The notes under the pieces are model-generated. The model was not told the DNA's origin and made no database searches. It saw only the letters and a list, made by a program, of their open reading frames with translations. A program made the translations under genes and the position numbers. Positions 6,085 to 59,627 of a stretch of 64,000 bases of DNA are shown one piece after another. Each line of letters begins with the position of its first letter. Position 1 is the stretch's first letter. The stretch is from Eledone cirrhosa (taxonomy: Eukaryota), in the NCBI GenBank assembly GCA_964016885.1, contig OZ024744.1, positions 70,742,001 through 70,806,000 on the forward strand. Reading direction: 5' to 3'.

Positions 6085-6126
6085 TGTGTGTCTGTGTGTG
6101 TATATATATATATATTTATATGTGAA

Positions 6127-6372
6127 GGCGCATGGCTTAGTGGTTAGAGCATTGGGCTTGCAATCGAAAGGTCTCGGACCGGGTGATGTGTTGTTTCCTT
6201 GAGCAAGACACTTTATTTCACGTTGCTCCAGTTTGCTCAGCTGTAGAAATGGGATGAAGAGGTACCGGCCTGCCCGCCCAGCCAGTGGGATGGCGTTATC
6301 TTATAGTTAAAACAGCACGGCGTGCTGTGACCAGCGGCGCCGAATGGACGTCCGATAGACTGATCGGTCAAG

Positions 6373-6913: not shown

Positions 6914-7040
6914 TGTAGGAGGTGAGTTTTATTGTAGTACAATAAAGCAATGCAGATATCGGATAAGAAGCACTCTACAGTTTGTAGGACTGGAGTATAC
7001 ATAATATAAGATCAAAAGATGGTTAAAGGAGTTCCATGTA

Positions 7041-7107
7041 TTTTATTATGCGCATTTCAAAAACAAACATCATCATGCAATAATATTTGTGTTTTCATCA
7101 GATAAAA
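7041..7107 (-). ncRNA. Minimal type I hammerhead ribozyme (left PLE arm)
   Basis: Reverse complement of 10241-10307. Confidence 0.85.
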
Positions 7108-8142
7108 CAGGAGAACATGATATGAAGGCTAAAAAACACTTGTGGATAGTGCAGTTTTAAATCAACATATGAAAAGTGGTTTTAGATTGATGTGTGATAT
7201 TGGGAAAAATATTTTATTTAGAGAGGGGGGTGGTGGAAAGGATGAAAAAGGGGAGGAGATGAGAGGGAGAGATGGGTGATAGAGAGAAAGAGATAGTTTT
7301 TATAACTGAGAGGAGATATATTGTTTTACATAGAGAGGTTGAAAACCGTTGGAAGATAATGTATAAATTAAAAAAATTTGAAAATTAACGAAGGGAGGAT
7401 ATGTGCGAGGAAAAAATATTTTATTTAGGGAGGGGGGGGGGGGGAAAGGATGAAAAAAGGGGGAGGAGATGAGAGTGAAGGTGGAGAGGGAGAGATGGGT
7501 GATAGAGAGAAAGAGATAGTTTTTATAACTGAGAAAAAGATATATTGTTTTACATAGAGAGGTTGAGAACCGTTGGAAGATAATGTATAAATTAAAGGAA
7601 TTTGAAAATTAACGAAGGGAATTTATGTATGAAGATAGAGAGAAAAAATAATAATTGTGGATGAATATTCTAACGTCAAAAAAAGTGTATGTTGATAAGT
7701 ATTGTGGCAATTTCAAAATTAACGAAGAGAAAAATTATTAAGGTTTGTGTGTAGAAGGATTTGAGAAAAATAATGTGAAGTTAAAGTTTGTATATTGAAG
7801 GAATTGATAATATATGCGAATAAAGAGTTAATATGTATTAAGAATGAGTTCGTTGATGGGGAGAAAAAAAATAATAAATTAAGGATGAAATTGAGATTAA
7901 AAAGATTTATGATAGAGAGAAAAAATAATAATGATTGCGGATGAATATTCTAACGTCAAAAAAACAAATGTATATGTTATGAAGGATTTTACAAGGTGAA
8001 GATAGAATGAGGGTAATGAGTAAACAAGTATTATATAGTGTATAATGCCCTTTAAAGTAAGGTAGGAAGATGGGTATATTTTAAAGAGGTGTATGTATAT
8101 GTGCCTTTGAGAAAAGATTCTAAATTGATAAAGAATTGAATA

Positions 8143-9398: not shown

Positions 9399-10240
9399 TA
9401 TATATATTATTATTATTATTTTTATTTTTTCTCTCTATCATAAATCTTTTTAATCTCAATTTCATCCTTAATTTATTATTTTTTTTCTCCCCATCAACGA
9501 ACTCATTCTTAATACATATTAACTCTTTATTCGCATATATTATCAATTCCTTCAATATACAAACTTTAACTTCACATTATTTTTCTCAAATCCTTCTACA
9601 CACAAACCTTAATAATTTTTCTCTTCGTTAATTTTGAAATTGCCACAATACTTATCAACATACACTTTTTTTGACGTTAGAATATTCATCCACAATTATT
9701 ATTTTTTCTCTCTATCTTCATACATAAATTCCCTTCGTTAATTTTCAAATTCCTTTAATTTATACATTATCTTCCAACGGTTCTCAACCTCTCTATGTAA
9801 AACAATATATCTTTTTCTCAGTTATAAAAACTATCTCTTTCTCTCTATCACCCATCTCTCCCTCTCCACCTTCACTCTCATCTCCTCCCCCTTTTTTCAT
9901 CCTTTCCACCCCCCCCCTCCCTAAATAAAATATGTTTTCCTCGCACATATCCTCCCTTCGTTAATTTTCAAATTTTTTTAATTTATACATTATCTTCCAA
10001 CGGTTTTCAACCTCTCTATGTAAAACAATATATCTCCTCTCAGTTATAAAAACTATCTCTTTCTCTCTATCACCCATCTCTCCCTCTCATCTCCTCCCCT
10101 TTTTCATCCTTTCCACCCCTCCCTCTCTAAATAAAATATTTTTCCCAATATCACACATCAATCTAAAACCACTTTTCATATGTTGATTTAAAACTGCACT
10201 ATCCACAAGTGTTTTTTAGCCTTCATATCATGTTCTCCTG

Positions 10241-10307
10241 TTTTATCTGATGAAAACACAAATATTATTGCATGATGATGTTTGTTTTTGAAATGCGCAT
10301 AATAAAA
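10241..10307 (+). ncRNA. Minimal type I hammerhead ribozyme (right PLE arm)
   Basis: TTTTAT-CTGATGA-long stem II (caaatattat/atgatgtttg)-GAAA-TGCGCA-TA-ATAAAA; palindromic stem III loop. Confidence 0.85.
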
Positions 10308-10546
10308 TACATGGAACTCCTTTAACCATCTTTTGATCTTATATTATATATACATATATATATATACATACACATACATATACATACATACACACACACA
10401 TATATACACACATATACATTAATAACAATAATAATAATAACAACAATAATAATAACGACAACAACAATTATAATATACATATATATATATACACATACAC
10501 GCACATACATAAACATATCTATACACACACACACACACGATAGCAA

Positions 10547-14339: not shown

Positions 14340-14975
14340 CCCCAGTAGACAACTGATGAGGAATCGCCCCCCCCCCACCGTTCTTGCTTTCTTCCCACTG
14401 CATTTTAAGCTACCTTAAATAGCAACTACACAGCCATTTCTATACTCCATATATTTCATCATGTTTTCGCTGTGGCCATTCTCTTCTCCTACCTAACTAT
14501 TTCGTTACTATCTACTCTTACCCCACTTTCTTCCTCTCCCTTTCTCCCTCTCACTTTCACCCCCCTCGTCTGACCCTCTAGTAGTTCTTTTTTCACTTAC
14601 AACTGCGGGGATCAGACGTGTCTTTTTTTCTCTCGACTACTCAGTCTTGAACTTAAGTTCTCTTATCGTGTGGTCTTGGATTTTCTTACCTTAAGTTGCT
14701 CGCACATTGCTCGGTTTGTGGGTTTTTTCGCTGTTTTTCACTGTTTTCTTTTTCTTCCATTTTGTTTTCCTTCCCTCCCTCCTACGTTTTCCCAATAACT
14801 TATCCAGTTATTGACGCCCTGGGGATAGATATCTTGTCTTTAAAGCGTAGAAATATCCGAGACCCCCAGTAGACAACTGATGAGGACCCCTCCCCCCGGC
14901 CTTGCTTTCTTCTTATTCCCACTCCATTTTAAGACACCTTAAATAGCAACTACACAGCCATTTCTATTCTCCATA
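14340..14975 (+). mobile_element. pLTR-like partial-tandem element (110-bp direct repeats 14341-14452 / 14865-14975) carrying the rearranged hammerhead
   Basis: Direct repeat with ~524-bp period, ending in (TA)n; related motif at 17161 and 59521. Confidence 0.65.
14793..14908 (+). ncRNA. Rearranged (non-circularly permuted) hammerhead-like RNA, copy A
   Basis: GATA-TC-TTGTCT..AAAGCG..GAAA-TATC..AGACAA-CTGATGA-hairpin-TGCTTT; pairings covary with copies B and C. Confidence 0.7.
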
Positions 14976-16685: not shown

Positions 16686-16741
16686 ACTGCTATATATATT
16701 TCGATGATAGCCATTGAATGGCTATGACCTCATCAGGCAGT
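16686..16741 (-). ncRNA. Minimal type I hammerhead ribozyme in a short (TA)n-flanked element (16641-16920)
   Basis: Minus: ACTGC-CTGATGA-ggtcATAGCCAT/ATGGCTATcatc-GAAA-TATATA-TA-GCAGT; second copy at 44315-44370. Confidence 0.85.
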
Positions 16742-17160
16742 TAGTCAGTTCTTAGATATGTTAGCTCTGTGTTTATAGTGTTGATGGTATCAGAACCTTG
16801 GGACATATGAGTTTGTTAGGAATAAATTAATGTTGTCAGCAGGAATAGTCTTGATTCTCATTGGTCAGTTTGTAGATGGTAGTAGGGTTGGTATTTGACC
16901 TCAAACAGGCAGGTGGTTTTATATATATATATATCACTCTCTGCTTCTCCCCCTCTCACTTCCTCCCGTTTGGCCTGTGTGGGGTCCTTTCTCACTCACA
17001 CCCCACCCATGTCGGATGGTCTGTATATCTCTGTCGCCCATGAAATTCACCCAGCTTAAGCTGAATAGATATCATGTGCTTGTTTCTTCCTATCTTTCCG
17101 TTGCAATACCATGTTTGTGTGTTTACTTGTCTCGCTCGCTTTACGCTATATTACTTGTCC

Positions 17161-17268
17161 CAATAACTTTATTTAGCTATTGCTCGCACCAACTAGAGGT
17201 ATATGATTTTTAAAGCGATGAAATACCAATGAAAGTTGGAAAATCACTGATGAAGGACTAATTTTATT
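17161..17268 (+). ncRNA. Rearranged hammerhead-like RNA, copy B (in element 16935-17270, 3'-truncated)
   Basis: CCAACT-AGA-GGTA-TA-TGATTTT-TAAAGCGAT-GAAA-TACC-AATGAA-AGTTGG-AAAATCA-CTGATGA. Confidence 0.7.
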
Positions 17269-17270
17269 CA

Positions 17271-20826
<3,556 letters not shown>

Positions 20827-26611: not shown

Positions 26612-27122
26612 ACGAGCGATAAATGTACGGCTTTGCCAAATTCAAATAAAAAAGAAAACTTTTTTCGCTCTAGATGGCTGAATACAATAAATGTAATCTG
26701 AGTTTTTCGAATATTAATAATAACATTCGATTCGTTTGGCATTTATCGCTAGTATACAGGAAACTCACTGGCCAGTCTGTTGATATGCAAATCTGGCTGA
26801 TCAGTGGAGCTGCTAATATGCAGATCTGACTGATCGGCCAGTCTGCTATTATGCAAATCAGGCCGATCAGTCACTGTGTATTTTTGAAAATAGTATATAT
26901 TTTCACTAGCTCTGACAGTTTGGCAGGTGAACAGTGAGCTGTACTGATGAAGGGTGATACACAGAAACATTAGTGTCTGCAGTTCTGTTCACATGCCAAC
27001 ACAAGAGCAAAAATGAAGGGTTCATTCTACTGACATGGCTATACAATTGAGGCTTGTTTGCATAATTGCAAACGAATCGAATGTTATTATTAATATTCGA
27101 AAAACTCAGATTACATTTATTA
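26612..27122 (+). mobile_element. Short PLE-like element with 53-bp inverted ends (26686-26738 / 27069-27121), tail and internal HHR
   Basis: Inverted ends are visible; body is homologous to 56745-57140. Confidence 0.75.
26936..26985 (+). ncRNA. Type I hammerhead ribozyme
   Basis: GAGCTGTA-CTGATGA-agggtgatacaca-GAAA-CATTAGTG-TC-TGCAGTTC; 8-bp stem I and GUC site. Confidence 0.85.
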
Positions 27123-30639: not shown

Positions 30640-30859
30640 CTTCTCCGTCCCAAACCACAACTGCTACTACCACCACCGCCATCCCCACTACCATCACCAA
30701 CACCACCATCACCACCAACACCACTACCATTAACACCACAACCACCATCATTACCCCGATCCTCTAAACACAACTACTACTACTACCACCACCGCTGCCA
30801 TCACCGTTACTAACATCCCCACCACCTAACTACCACCACTACCACTACGACCATAATCA

Positions 30860-31310
30860 CCACACCACCACTAAAAAACACCACACCACCACTGAAAAAT
30901 ATCACAGCGTCATTAAAAAACACCACACCACCACTAAAAAACACCACACCACCACTAAAAAACACCACACCACCACTAAAAATCACCACACCACCACTAA
31001 AAAAACAACCACACCACCACTAAAAAGCACTACACCACCACTAAAAAACACCACAGCATCACTAAAAACACTACACCACCACTAAAAATCATCACACCAC
31101 TACTAAAAAACACCACACCACCACTAAAAAACACCACACCACCACTAAAAATCACCACACCACCACTAAAAAAACACCACAGCACCACTAAAAACACTAT
31201 GCCACCACTAAAAAACACTACACCACCACTAAAAACACTACACCACACTAAAAAAACACCACAGCACCACTAAAAATACTACACCACCACTAAAAAATAC
31301 CACACCACAC
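30860..31310. repeat. ~21-bp minisatellite (CACCACACCACCACTAAAAAA) within CAT/CAC low-complexity tract 30540-32100
   Basis: About 20 tandem units read directly. Confidence 0.9.
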
Positions 31311-44314: not shown

Positions 44315-44370
44315 ACTGCTATATATATTTCGATGATAGCCATTGAATGGTTGTGACCTCATCAGGCAGT
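44315..44370 (-). ncRNA. Minimal type I hammerhead ribozyme (copy of 16686-16741)
   Basis: Same core and stems; element spans 44270-44415 between (TA)n tracts. Confidence 0.82.
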
Positions 44371-44571
44371 TAGTCAGTTCTTAGATATGCCAGCTCTGTA
44401 TCAGACCCTTGGGACATATATATATATATATATATATAATTCGTTATATATATATATATTTATATATAATTCGTTATATATATATATATATATTTATATA
44501 TAATTCGTTTTTTATATATATATATATATATAAAAAATTATATATATATAAATATATATATATATAAAACG

Positions 44572-50230: not shown

Positions 50231-50679
50231 TGTGCAGGTGTTTGTGGAAGTATTTGACAGGGAGGGAGGAGGCAATAGACACATACATGCATATAATCGC
50301 ATATACATGTATAAATATATATGTGTGTACCTGTATGCGTGCTCTCTCTGTATACACATTATTTGAAATATGCGTGTATGTGTGTATGTTTGTGTGCATG
50401 TATGTATATTAAAGAATGGTTTCTGATTTAGGCACAAGGTCAACATTTTGGTGGGAGAGGAAAGTTGATTAAATCCAACCCAGTGCGTTATTGGTACTTT
50501 AACCGTAAGGATAAATGGCAAAGCTAATCTCGGTGGAACTTGAACTCAGATTGTTATGAGCTATAACTCTATGCCACAAAGCATTTTGTCCGACGCTCTA
50601 CCTTTTCTGCCAATCCACCGTGCATAACACACCGTATATAAGATCAAACAATTTAATGTAGATCTAAGTACGATTTTAG

Positions 50680-53600
50680 CTATAACTACAGATATATCTA
50701 GTTTTTAGATATGTCTACAGTTTTTAGATGTCTACAGTTTTTAGATATATCTACAGTTTTTAGATGTCTACAGTTTTTAGATATGTCTACAGTTTTTAGA
50801 TGTCTACAGTTGATATATATTTCTACAGTTTTTAGATGTCTACAGTTTTTAGATATGTCTACAGTTTTTAGATGTCTACAGTTTTTAGATGTCTACAGTT
50901 TTTAGATATGTCTACAGTTTTTAGATGTCTACAGTTTTTAGATATAACTACAGTTTTTAGATATATCTACAGTTTTAGGATATGTCTACAGTTTTTAGAT
51001 ATGTCTACTGTTTTTAGATATGTCTACAGTTTTTAGATATTTCTACAGTTTTTTAGATATATCTACAGTTTTTAGATGTCTACAGTTTTTAGATATGTCT
51101 ACTGTTTTTAGATGTCTACAGTTGATAAATTTGTCTACATTTTTTAGATGTCTACAGTTGATAGATATGTCTACAGTTTTTAGATATAACTACAGTTTTT
51201 AGATATGTCTACAGTTTTTAGATATGTCTACAGTTTTTAGATGTCTACAGTTGATAGATATGTCTACAGTTTTTAGATGTCTACAGTTGATAGATATGTC
51301 TACAGTTTTAAGATATAACTACAGTTTTTAGATATTTCTACAGTTTTTAGATATAACTACAGTTTTTAGATATGTCTACAGTTTATAGATATAACTACAG
51401 TTTTTAGATATGTCTACAGTTTTTAGATATATCTACAGTTTTTATATATAACTACAGTTTTTAGATATGTCTACAGTTTTTAGATATTTCTACAGTTTTT
51501 AGATATAACTACAGTTTTTAGATATTTCTACAGTTTTTAGATATAACTACAGTTTTTAGATGTCTACAGTTTTTAGATATAACTACAGTTTTTAGATATA
51601 TCTACAGTTTTTAGATATAACTACAGTTTTTAGATATATCTACAGTTTTTAGATATAACTACAGTTTTTAGATGTCTACAGTTGATAGATATATCTACAG
51701 TTTTTAGATGTCTACAGTTTTTAGATATGTCTACAGTTTTTAGATGTCTACAGTTTTTAGATATGTCTACAGTTTTTAGATGTCTACAGTTTTTAGATAT
51801 AACTACAGTTTTTAGATATGTCTACAGTTTTTAGATGTCTACTGTTTTTAGATATGTCTACAGTTTTTAGATGTCTACAGTTTTTAGATATGTCTACAGT
51901 TTTTATATATTTCTACAGTTTTTAGATGTCTACAGTTGATAGATATGTCTACAGTTTTTAGATATCTACAGTTTTTAGATATGTCTACAGTTTTTAGATA
52001 TAACTACAGTTTTTAGATGTCTACAGTTTTTAGATATAACTACAGTTTTTAGATATATCTACAGTTTTTAGATGTCTACAGTTTTTAGATGTAACTACAG
52101 TTTTTAGATATTTCTACAGTTTTTAGATATGTCTACAGTTTTTAGATATATCTACAGTTTTTAGATGTCTACAGTTTTTAGATATTTCTACAGTTTTTAG
52201 ATATGTCTACAGTTTTTAGATATATCTACAGTTTTTAGATGTCTACAGTTTTTAGATATAACTACAGTTTTTTAGATATATCTACAGTTTTTAGATATCT
52301 ACAGTTTTTAGATATATCTACAGTTTTTAGATATCTACAGTTTTTAGATATGTCTACAGTTTTTAGATATGTCTACAGTTTTTAGATATGTCTACAGTTT
52401 TTAGATATTTCTACAGTTTTTTAGATGTCTACAGTTTTTAGATATCTACAGTTTTTAGATATGTCTACAGTTTTTAGATATATCTAAAGTTTTTAGATGT
52501 CTACAGTTTTTAGATATAACTACAGTTTTTTAGATATATCTACAGTTTTTAGATATCTACAGTTTTTAGATATATCTACAGTTTTTAGATATTTCTACAG
52601 TTTTTAGATGTCTACAGTTTTTAGATATTTCTACAGTTTTTTAGATATAACTACAGTTTTTATATATCTACAGTTTTTAGATATATCTACAGTTTTTAGA
52701 TATAACTACAGTTTTTAGATGTCTACAGTTTTTAGATATAACTACAGTTTTTAGATATATCTACAGTTTTTAGATGTCTACAGTTTTTAGATATATCTAC
52801 AGTTTTTAGATATGTCTACAGTTTTTAGATGTCTACAGTTTTTAGATATGTCTACAGTTTTTAGATGTCTACAGTTTTTAGATGTCTACAGTTTTTAGAT
52901 ATGTCTACAGTTTTTAGATGTCTAGAGTTTTTAGATATAACTACAGTTTTTAGATATATCTACAGTTTTTAGATATGTCTACAGTTTTTATATATCTACA
53001 GTTGATAGATATGTCTACAGTTTTTAGATATAACTACAGTTTTTAGATATAACTACAGTTTTTAGATATAACTACAGTTTTTATATATCTACAGTTTTTA
53101 GATATAACTACAGTTTTTAGATATGTCTACAGTTTTTAGATGTCTACAGTTTTTAGATATAACTACAGTTCTTAGATATAACTACAGTTTTTAGATATAT
53201 CTACAGTTTTTAGATATGTCTACAGTTTTTAGATGTCTACAGTTTTTAGATATAACTACAGTTTTTAGATATAACTACAGTTTTTAGATATATCTACAGT
53301 TTTTAGATATAACTACAGTTTTTAGATATAACTACAGTTTTTAGATATAACTACAGTTTTTAGATATAACTACAGTTTTTAGATATAACTACAGTTTTTA
53401 GATATGTCTACAGTTTTTAGATATAACTACAGTTTTTAGATGTCTACAGTTTTTAGATATGTCTACAGTTTTTAGATATAACTACAGTTTTTAGATATGT
53501 CTACAGTTTTTAGATATAACTACAGTTTTTAGATATGTCTACAGTTTTTAGATATAACTACAGTTTTTAGATATAACTACAGTTTTTAGATATGTCTACA

Positions 53601-56667: not shown

Positions 56668-56929
56668 CATATATAATAAAATAAAACAAGGACGAGTGGT
56701 TACTCCTTCATAACGTTTATTAGTTGGTGACGCGCGTTTCGCTATTAATCGCTCCTATACAGGAAACTGACTTGCTGATATGCAAATCTGGCTAACCAGT
56801 GGATCTGCTAATATGCAGATCTGACTGATCAGCCAATCTGCTAATATGCAAATCAGGCCGATCAGTCACTGTATATTTCAGAAAATATAATATATCTTCA
56901 CTAGCTCTAACAGTTGACAGGTGAACAGT

Positions 56930-56979
56930 GAGCTGTACTGATGAAGAGTAATACCCAGAAACATTAGTGTCTGCAGTTC
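56930..56979 (+). ncRNA. Type I hammerhead ribozyme (family of 26936) in element 56672-57140
   Basis: GAGCTGTA-CTGATGA-agagtaataccca-GAAA-CATTAGTG-TC-TGCAGTTC. Confidence 0.85.
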
Positions 56980-57895
56980 TGTTTAGATGCCAACACAAGA
57001 GCAAGAATAAGGGACTCATTCTACTGACATGGCTTTGAAAATGAGGCTTGTTTGCATAATTGCAAACGAATCGAATATTATTATTAATATTCGAAAAACT
57101 CAGATTACATTTATTGTATTCAGCCATGTAGAGCGAAATTTAAATATATATATACGTATAGAAATTTCGTATTTCTAAAGAACTACGGTATGTTTACAGG
57201 GTAAAACATTTAGGAAGCCGTAGCTATGCAAACACCGGGGCTAACGCCCTCTGGTGGTGTCCAGCAAGGGGGACAACCATCTATGCATTTCAGGCTTGAC
57301 TGGTCTTCACCAGGACGGTCCCTCCCACGCTTGCAACTGCTGGACTTGAGAACAGTGGAGAATATATAGTTTCTCGTCTGTGTAAATGAGGTGATTAATC
57401 ATATTTGCATGCAAAATTTCATTAAGACATGCGTTATTAAGAAAACCATGAAGGAACAAAACCAATGAAGAACATTGAACTACAGTCATGCAACCTGTAG
57501 TTTATTTACATTTATTTAAGAAGAAAAAAAAACCGGCGAGCTACAGCTATACTTGATTAGTGTTGTGGGGATTAATAGAAGACCCATGACCTAATGGTTA
57601 GGATATAACAGTTTCGGCATACCAAATTTAGTCAAAAGGCTGGTTGGTTCAAGTCTATAATACAAGACATTTGCCAAAGGTGCCACATAGAACCCAAAAC
57701 CATATGGTTGTGAAGCGAATTTCTTAATTACACTGCCATGCTTTATCATTTCAAACGATTAATTTTTCATATTTTCTGAAGACGGCGGGGTGTCCACCAT
57801 AAGGCCTTTTCATGCTTGGCCACCAGGCAGATAAACACTGCCTGTATTTCCCCACTAAAGGAAGACGGCGGGGTGATCTTCAGTGGGGCTCCGGT

Positions 57896-59520: not shown

Positions 59521-59627
59521 CAACGACTTTTTTTGGCCGTTGCTCGCACCAACCGGAGGTATATGGTCTTTAAAGCGATGAAATGCCTATGATGGTTGGA
59601 AGATCACTGATGAAGGACAAACTTTTG

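Follow-up and report, generated by a model that had tools for sequence, protein, structure and literature searches.

The internal loop on stem III of a scrambled hammerhead motif in Eledone cirrhosa was read as a kink-turn (k-turn) in three copies within one window, the whole stretch of 64,000 nucleotides analysed here, and this sequence-only reading is borne out by the pattern of invariant and free positions in 21 lineages of the carrier repeat and by recurrence of the motif in unrelated elements. Taken with the covarying helices, this fixed and free pattern and the recurrence of the motif next to unrelated helices make it very probable that main-clade copies of the repeat carry a true k-turn. 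Its role is likely architectural, that of a bend that would close a compact self-cutting fold.

Layout of the scrambled hammerhead in the window

In all three copies, designated A, B and C (Table 1), the conserved blocks run from the cleavage site to GAAA and then to CUGAnGA, the order of a type-SGC, non-circularly permuted hammerhead, and the loop lies on stem III, between this stem and an outer helix. Read 5' to 3', the first half of copy B holds the 5' strand of the outer helix, AGA, the 5' strand of stem III with UH, the 5' strand of stem I, UAAA and helix IIa, and the second half holds GAAA, the 3' strand of stem III, the AAU bulge, GAA, the 3' strands of the outer helix and of stem I, CUGAUGA and helix IIb. 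Where a plain stem II would be, the leader of copy B and the IIa and IIb strands make up a four-way junction. Every loop base quoted earlier for the three copies was correct, and the link of 0-1 nt between the outer helix and stem I was confirmed, with the end pair of stem I forming in 12 of 24 aligned rows. The A-U noted at the second position of copy A is present as well, but its ATA strand is a minority state, the subfamily majority being TGA with the standard A.G pair; U at 2n is nevertheless a genuine lineage state in 3 of the 21 lineages.

Rfam searches of the whole window returned no hammerhead or k-turn family and only microsatellite-driven miRNA matches among the best 150 of 173, and the interval 17100-17300 gave only four weak, unrelated matches. 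The UAA linker that runs from stem I to helix IIa is unchanged in all 21 lineages, is UAA or UCA in the sister F clade, and may make a tertiary contact.

Table 1. Features of the motif and its carrier repeat, in positions of the window.
Feature	Position	Strand	Remarks
Earlier tandem unit before copy A	end near 14360		truncated
Copy A, same fold, k-turn ATA / CGA-GAC	14819..14883 (loop 14819-14869)	+	subfamily majority TGA
Repeat unit with copy B, 5'-truncated, between (TA)n tracts	16935..17316	+	limits approximate
Copy B 5' leader: IIb partner GTCC, 7-bp hairpin, IIa partner TCGC	17157..17188	+	compensatory pairs: hairpin 5/7, IIa 2/4
Copy B, motif	17189..17253	+	
Copy B outer (NC) helix, 5' strand, CCAACT	17189..17194	+	partner 17234-17239; 96.5% of cells paired, 5/6 pairs compensatory
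Copy B k-turn, non-bulged strand: 3n A, 2n G, 1n A	17195..17197	+	A1n unchanged in 21/21 lineages
Copy B stem III, 5' strand GGTAT (17198-17202) with U16.1; H17 = A at 17203	17198..17203	+	C helix of predicted k-turn; 98.3% paired
Copy B predicted cut	after 17203	+	by analogy with hammerheads
Copy B stem I, 5' strand	17204..17210	+	partner 17240-17246; 6/7 pairs compensatory
Copy B linker TAAA, helix IIa strand GCGA, position 11.1	17211..17219	+	TAA (17211-17213) invariant
Copy B core GAAA and stem III 3' strand (ATACC 17223-17227)	17220..17227	+	core invariant
Copy B k-turn, bulged strand: bulge L1-L3 AAT (17228-17230), then G1b, A2b, A3b (17231-17233)	17228..17233	+	read from sequence; G1b, A2b 0 changes; L1-L3 3-6 changes
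Copy B outer (NC) helix, 3' strand, AGTTGG	17234..17239	+	continues straight into stem I
Copy B stem I 3' strand, core CTGATGA (17247-17253), position 10.1, helix IIb strand GGAC	17240..17258	+	
Copy C, same fold, k-turn GGA / TAT-GAT, U.G at 3b-3n	59549..59613 (loop 59549-59599)	+	99% identical copies genome-wide

Fixed and free positions of the loop in the main clade

A total of 255 unique copies were parsed, of which 192 had main-clade geometry. Clustering of the 177 copies with the most frequent spacing, based on positions other than those of the loop, gave 37 clusters, and the alignment was composed of representatives of 16 of the 17 clusters with at least two copies (one redundant representative omitted), 5 of the 20 singletons and the three window copies. 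These five singletons were picked by eye as distinct and intact, and among the 15 dropped are two in which an insertion displaces 1n and an F copy that was mis-parsed. Representatives J1 and D6s came from a GA-constrained list, the J1 subfamily being present in the unconstrained list also. The 21 lineages so defined are related and all from one genome, and their tree was built without the loop positions.

On this tree, parsimony gave no changes at 1b, 2b and 1n and three at 2n, always to U, with 6 changes at L1, 3 at L2, 5 at L3, 4 at 3b and 6 at 3n. Counted per copy, A1n was present in 186, G1b in 184 and A2b in 187 of the 192 copies, and 2n was G in 170 and U in 19. A 3-nt bulge followed by G1b.A1n was found in 21/21 main-clade lineages, the spacing being fixed by the parse, and the subfamilies with 22- and 24-nt spacing also have 3 nt and then GA. 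The second pair, 2b-2n, is A.G in 18 lineages and A.U in 3, the canonical helix end of a simple k-turn (C-G at -1b/-1n) is present in 19, and the NC arm carries on as a helix of 6 bp, five of whose pairs are compensatory. The pattern for standard k-turns, as given in the available part of PMC5061560, is likewise a C-G at -1b/-1n, a free bulge, a fixed G.A and 2n as the usual site of substitution. Watson-Crick pairing at 3b-3n was restricted to 1 of the 21 lineages, an avoidance that alone is not significant (P 0.09). Other non-core columns were unchanged in 8 of 61 cases, and the naive chance for the three named invariant columns is 0.002, or 0.04 against unpaired columns only.

In the 3.0 Gb of genome searched, GAAA-N23-CTGATGA had 28,105 matches as compared to 506 for the reversed control (spacing 24: 4,425 against 486; spacing 22: 3,467 against 480), and with GA placed exactly at 1b-2b there were 20,880 against 54. 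Matches to GAAA-N23-CTGATGA that are without this GA include the F clade and one unrelated family, which forms 16 of the first 100 listed matches and by eye is like an ordinary type I hammerhead.

Folding in ions or with protein

It is quite unlikely that the ribozyme is protein-gated, with a k-turn that folds only with Snu13/15.5K or another L7Ae-family protein, whereby cleavage would be timed or the RNA flagged for a nuclear particle. The 3b-3n pair is U.U in 10 of the 21 lineages, C.U in 5, U.G in 3, and A.A, C.A and C-G in one each. By the published 3b-3n rules U.U is of the box C/D type, which speaks for gating since box C/D k-turns with this pair do not fold in ions alone and in isolation need protein (PMC5061560, in part), but by the same rules the 9 lineages with 3b = C or 3n = G are expected to fold in Mg2+ alone, and lineages switch from one class to another; the C-G lineage is a rule-1 non-folder and the A.A of copy B falls under no rule. 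In the available parts of the sources, 97% of U4 k-turns are non-folders and those of SAM-I group with the folders, so that U4 has consistent selection for protein dependence whereas the lineages of the repeat are mixed, and L7Ae is described as binding even an A2n k-turn, which again favours gating. Against it, L3 and the 4b-4n pair are free to vary across lineages and the F lineages are without such a site.

The box C/D consensus is RUGAUGA opposite CUGA. Eight of the 21 lineages combine a purine at L2, U at L3, GA and U.U, and in 3 of the 21 CUGA stands opposite RUGAUG too, a near-match that gating could claim; a conserved box C/D motif was not found across the 21 lineages. An L7Ae-family protein could bind the predicted k-turn. 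The earlier suggestion of a Mg2+- or protein-switchable ribozyme is unsupported, the 3b-3n classes being mixed and the near box C/D motif confined to 3/21 lineages.

Sister lineages with other bulges

Core, leader junction and tandem arrangement are common to the F clade and the main clade, but only 2 of the 58 F copies carry the A1n and G/U2n signature. Half of the refutation test set with the sequence-only reading, a loop length and GA dinucleotides that are not conserved family-wide, has thus come out against a family-wide k-turn: G1b, A2b and A1n are fixed in the 21 main-clade lineages, but the signature is nearly absent from the F clade. A family-wide k-turn has to be given up, with three abundant sister subfamilies and the coral Naiads having plain or asymmetric bulges. 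In F1 the same UAU-GAU strand lies opposite AUC, which leaves a plain 3-nt bulge between perfect Watson-Crick helices and makes F1 a natural A1nC form (C at 1n) with links nearly as short as in the main clade. F2 has a 3x6 loop. In F3 stem III extends over 8 bp, the bulge is of 5 nt and lies on the opposite strand, and the linker is slack. About a thousand candidates of each were found (1063, 1236 and 966 for F1, F2 and F3), so the clade is abundant, and the 96-98% identity of F3 copies to the query makes part of it recent. Alternative k-turn or k-junction registers drawn by eye for F1 and F2 were dropped as they break the longer Watson-Crick run (F1 duplex -15.7 kcal/mol). The F1 subfamily (L116, L301-L330) has the cleavage triplet GUU, and CUGU/ACAG is common to its outer helix and stem I, so that two local hairpins could compete with the active fold.

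As judged from sequence comparison, the k-turn would be one of several bends and dispensable in sister clades, because F1-F3, the Acropora Naiads and the published SGC RNAs use other arrangements. The wider family would then need a bend and not a particular motif, its sister lineages using other bulges in the way RNase P swaps a k-turn for a pk-turn, the two being interchangeable there (PMC5061560, in part).

We hold it improbable that the loop is a flexible hinge only, whose G and A bases are kept for some other contact or by descent and adopt no k-turn geometry. F1 would suit such a hinge, as it retains the UAU-GAU strand with a Watson-Crick partner and is still amplified to about a thousand candidates, but in the main clade both strands are conserved in register, the changes tolerated at 2n (U and A) are only those known from Kt-23, and the motif recurs in elements with unrelated helices.

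Recurrence of the motif in other elements

A GA-free pattern scan of metagenome and viral contigs gave at least 147 matches, mostly chance, and the five metagenome or viral matches that passed a fixed-register filter for stems I and III have 2 of 6 outer pairs each. By eye the full fold is present in loci L366 and L398, both just past the end of a retrotransposon-like ORF; L366, from a metagenome, has G.A, A.G and C.U, and L398 has G.A, A.G and U.G with a weak stem III (3/5 pairs). The peptide of L398 identified 30 loci in the genome from which the window comes, and in 13 of them an SGC-order core could be parsed no more than 600 nt past the match (one or more of these being a loose chance parse). 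The ORFs of these loci match zf-RVT below the Pfam cut-off, and we take the elements to be HERO-like retrotransposons. Their 3' UTR families were chosen without a GA constraint. One family, with 15 ungapped copies among the 30 loci, has a 6-bp stem III, a 3-nt bulge and the pairs G.A, A.A, U.G and A.A, the A.A at 2b-2n being present in 14 of the 15 copies; T. thermophilus Kt-23 has the same U.G and A.A at positions 3 and 4, and T. solenopsae Kt-23 the same A at 2n, as given in the available part of its source. A second family of five degraded copies has by eye AGA opposite 3 nt-GAA and a standard core. Stem II of the HERO-like 3' UTR form (L506-L531) is a clean four-way junction, with a 9-bp IIb directly after A9, an 8-bp hairpin and a 5-bp IIa directly before G12.

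Naiad_Obim and Naiad_Ovul ends, taken from the available part of the supplement of Craig et al. 2021 (PMC8557442), have by eye the same fold with UGA opposite ARU-GAU, the records placed before the Naiad_Ovul and Naiad_Omin headers being taken as Naiad_Obim and Naiad_Ovul, respectively. In the same part of the supplement, Acropora Naiad ends have by eye a 12-bp stem III and a larger bulge. The metadata of Naiad_Ovul there carry the comment 'HHR_half_core'; therefore the Naiad authors appear to have seen part of the core without the permuted fold. An unlikely but wider scheme is that retrozyme-like repeats, HERO-like and Naiad elements share one natural hammerhead architecture: the stem III k-turn would complete a three-armed cage around the active site and act as a hinge open to locking by a host L7Ae-family protein (Snu13/15.5K); if true, this would be a naturally protein-gated self-cleaving ribozyme timing the processing of retroelement RNA.

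Helix covariation and geometry of the proposed closed fold

Over the 35 proposed pairs 91.9% were paired and 23/35 compensatory, a level reached in 0 of 500 shuffles (which ignore relatedness) and by none of the slid controls. Stems I and III covary around an invariant core, and the strand preceding stem I pairs with the 5' leader. Stem II beside the core has 0-1 bp (16/24 rows pair), followed by the four-way junction with the 5' leader.

Between the outer helix and stem I there are 0-1 nt, and between the outer helix and helix IIa 1 nt. We infer that the 5-bp stem III acts as the C helix, and the G.A and A.G pairs with the 6-bp outer helix as the NC arm, whose far end would be held by these two links; because they are so short, an acute angle would be needed. 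The loop likely folds as a standard k-turn that bends the far end of stem III back, giving a compact scrambled hammerhead. Mg2+ and closure of the fold as a whole would keep the kink in place, as happens with the SAM-I riboswitch, whose tertiary closure stabilises an impaired k-turn (PMC5061560, in part), so that protein would not be required.

In a rough model of the bend, a planar best-case triangle with assumed helix dimensions and closure set at 18 A or less, 44% of draws closed at 50 degrees, 9% at 70 degrees and none at 90 degrees or more, the median gap even at 50 degrees being 20 A. The claim that a sharp bend is required is thus upheld by this rough model provided that all helices form together, but F1, with a plain bulge and nearly as short links, goes against it. 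To be consistent with the model, F1 would need a bulge that is made to kink, an outer helix that frays or some other working form.

Nested-only folding, which is blind to pseudoknots, placed whole copies no better than shuffles (z -0.6 to -1.6). It is very improbable that stem III and the outer helix make a straight off-state rod in competition with stem I, the outer helix opening or tandem units swapping strands before cleavage, for although the units are tandem, nested folding gives a rod without stem I in copies B and C and a rod would account for F1, which with its plain bulge fails to close in the model, such prediction cannot show pseudoknots, a rod has no need of invariant sheared G.A pairs, and stem III, the outer helix and the links are each of fixed length, which suggests that they form jointly.

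Predicted cleavage and the carrier repeat

In the 255 copies, 47 alignments of 5'-truncated ends fell in the examined span: 21 at -5..+12 of the cut (18 positions), 6 at -40..-6 (35 positions), 14 at -55..-41 (in part from edge effects) and 6 further 3'. For the step at the cut the binomial P is 4e-6, the interval having been drawn after seeing the data and two loci contributing two ends each. These ends lend indirect support to cleavage at the predicted H17. As 11 of the 21 are main-clade and 10 are F, both forms may cleave; activity is not guaranteed because stem II next to the core has only 0-1 bp.

The carrier is a non-coding repeat arranged in head-to-tail tandems, 5'-truncated, often inverted and lying inside (TA)n tracts, with 21 of 26 distinct same-strand spacings between units at 445-804 nt. 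Cleavage would split tandem transcripts into units, and retrotransposon enzymes would copy the units back into (TA)n tracts. A Penelope-like family with C-terminal GIY-YIG was rejected as autonomous partner, since among 30 loci the query alone has an SGC core after the ORF, and 23 of the 30 have a type-I-like core of their own. This family is large (L201-L230), and its minimal type-I-like core lies about 150-195 nt past the ORF in most of the 23/30.

Relation to known ribozymes and retroelements

Type-SGC HRIMA-1 and its variants (Eckert et al. 2023, PMC10085705, in part) have the same S-G-C order, the full core, a short U-rich linker between stems I and II and, like the repeat, a strand from stem III to stem I. 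These RNAs were obtained from metatranscriptomes and not from genomes of known organisms, and they differ from the repeat in a continuous 5-bp stem II and an interaction helix with the 3' tail, both absent in the repeat, and in having UCA/UCU or UUA in place of its UAA linker; no outer helix on stem III is present among the 52 + 33 rows examined of the published alignments. That paper, in its available part, flags the 0-nt link in type-SGC hammerheads as a puzzle, for which the predicted k-turn offers a concrete answer, as it would let stem III reach the region of stems I and II with its far end and no linker. The words 'kink' and 'k-turn' do not occur in the text and supplement of PMC10085705. 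Literature searches, with thin coverage of subscription journals, returned Eckert 2023 only for 'type-SGC', and neither a natural hammerhead with a k-turn nor SGC hammerheads in animal genomes in the titles and abstract starts among the matches listed. A k-turn in a natural small nucleolytic ribozyme has no precedent in the literature searched.

With standard simple k-turns (Kt-7, SAM-I, box C/D, U4) and Kt-23, as described in the available parts of PMC5061560, PMC2790904 and PMC3985660, the repeat has in common the C-G at -1b/-1n, the 3-nt bulge, G.A and then A.G, a non-Watson-Crick 3b-3n and U or A variants at 2n. Unlike these, the predicted k-turn, its kink read from sequence, has stem III for its C helix and is 5 bp away from the active site of a hammerhead. 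Natural variants of one scaffold in the genome cover A.G, A.U and A.A at 2b-2n, six different 3b-3n pairs and an A1nC lineage, a series that suits tests of k-turn folding rules with cleavage as the read-out, and the loop is a ready site for building protein-responsive ribozymes.

Animal non-LTR retrozymes (available parts of PMC7229834 and 10.64898/2026.07.22.740005) share with the repeat non-coding head-to-tail units with one hammerhead each, thousands of copies and a host genome with Penelope-like elements; those described have type I hammerheads and units of about 150-450 nt, whereas the repeat has the SGC order and most of its spacings are longer (see above). Naiad Penelope-like elements (Craig et al. 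2021, PMC8557442, in part) have the same preference for (TA)n and tandem and inverted copies, and the leader hairpin of the repeat resembles octopus Naiad ends. Naiads were reported there without hammerheads under standard descriptors, for which the permuted fold suggests a reason; the repeat itself is non-coding.

Other repeats in the window

Two copies of another repeat at 26929-26985 and 56923-56980 (+ strand) have CUGAUGA, GAAAC and a UC site in type I order and are possible conventional hammerheads. Related repeats at about 16700-16751 and at 44330-44380 (- strand) have CUGAUGA, a short hairpin and CGAAA, end in (TA)n and are possibly truncated type I hammerheads. A tRNA-like SINE head, presumably of an octopus SINE, lies at 6123-6170, where ARAGORN calls no tRNA. 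The arms of a long inverted repeat at 6995-7935 and 9415-10353 are 95-98% complementary around a 1.5-kb spacer, like a foldback or DNA transposon, and satellite arrays at 50670-52800 and 30811-31310 consist of 17/19-nt and 21-nt units.
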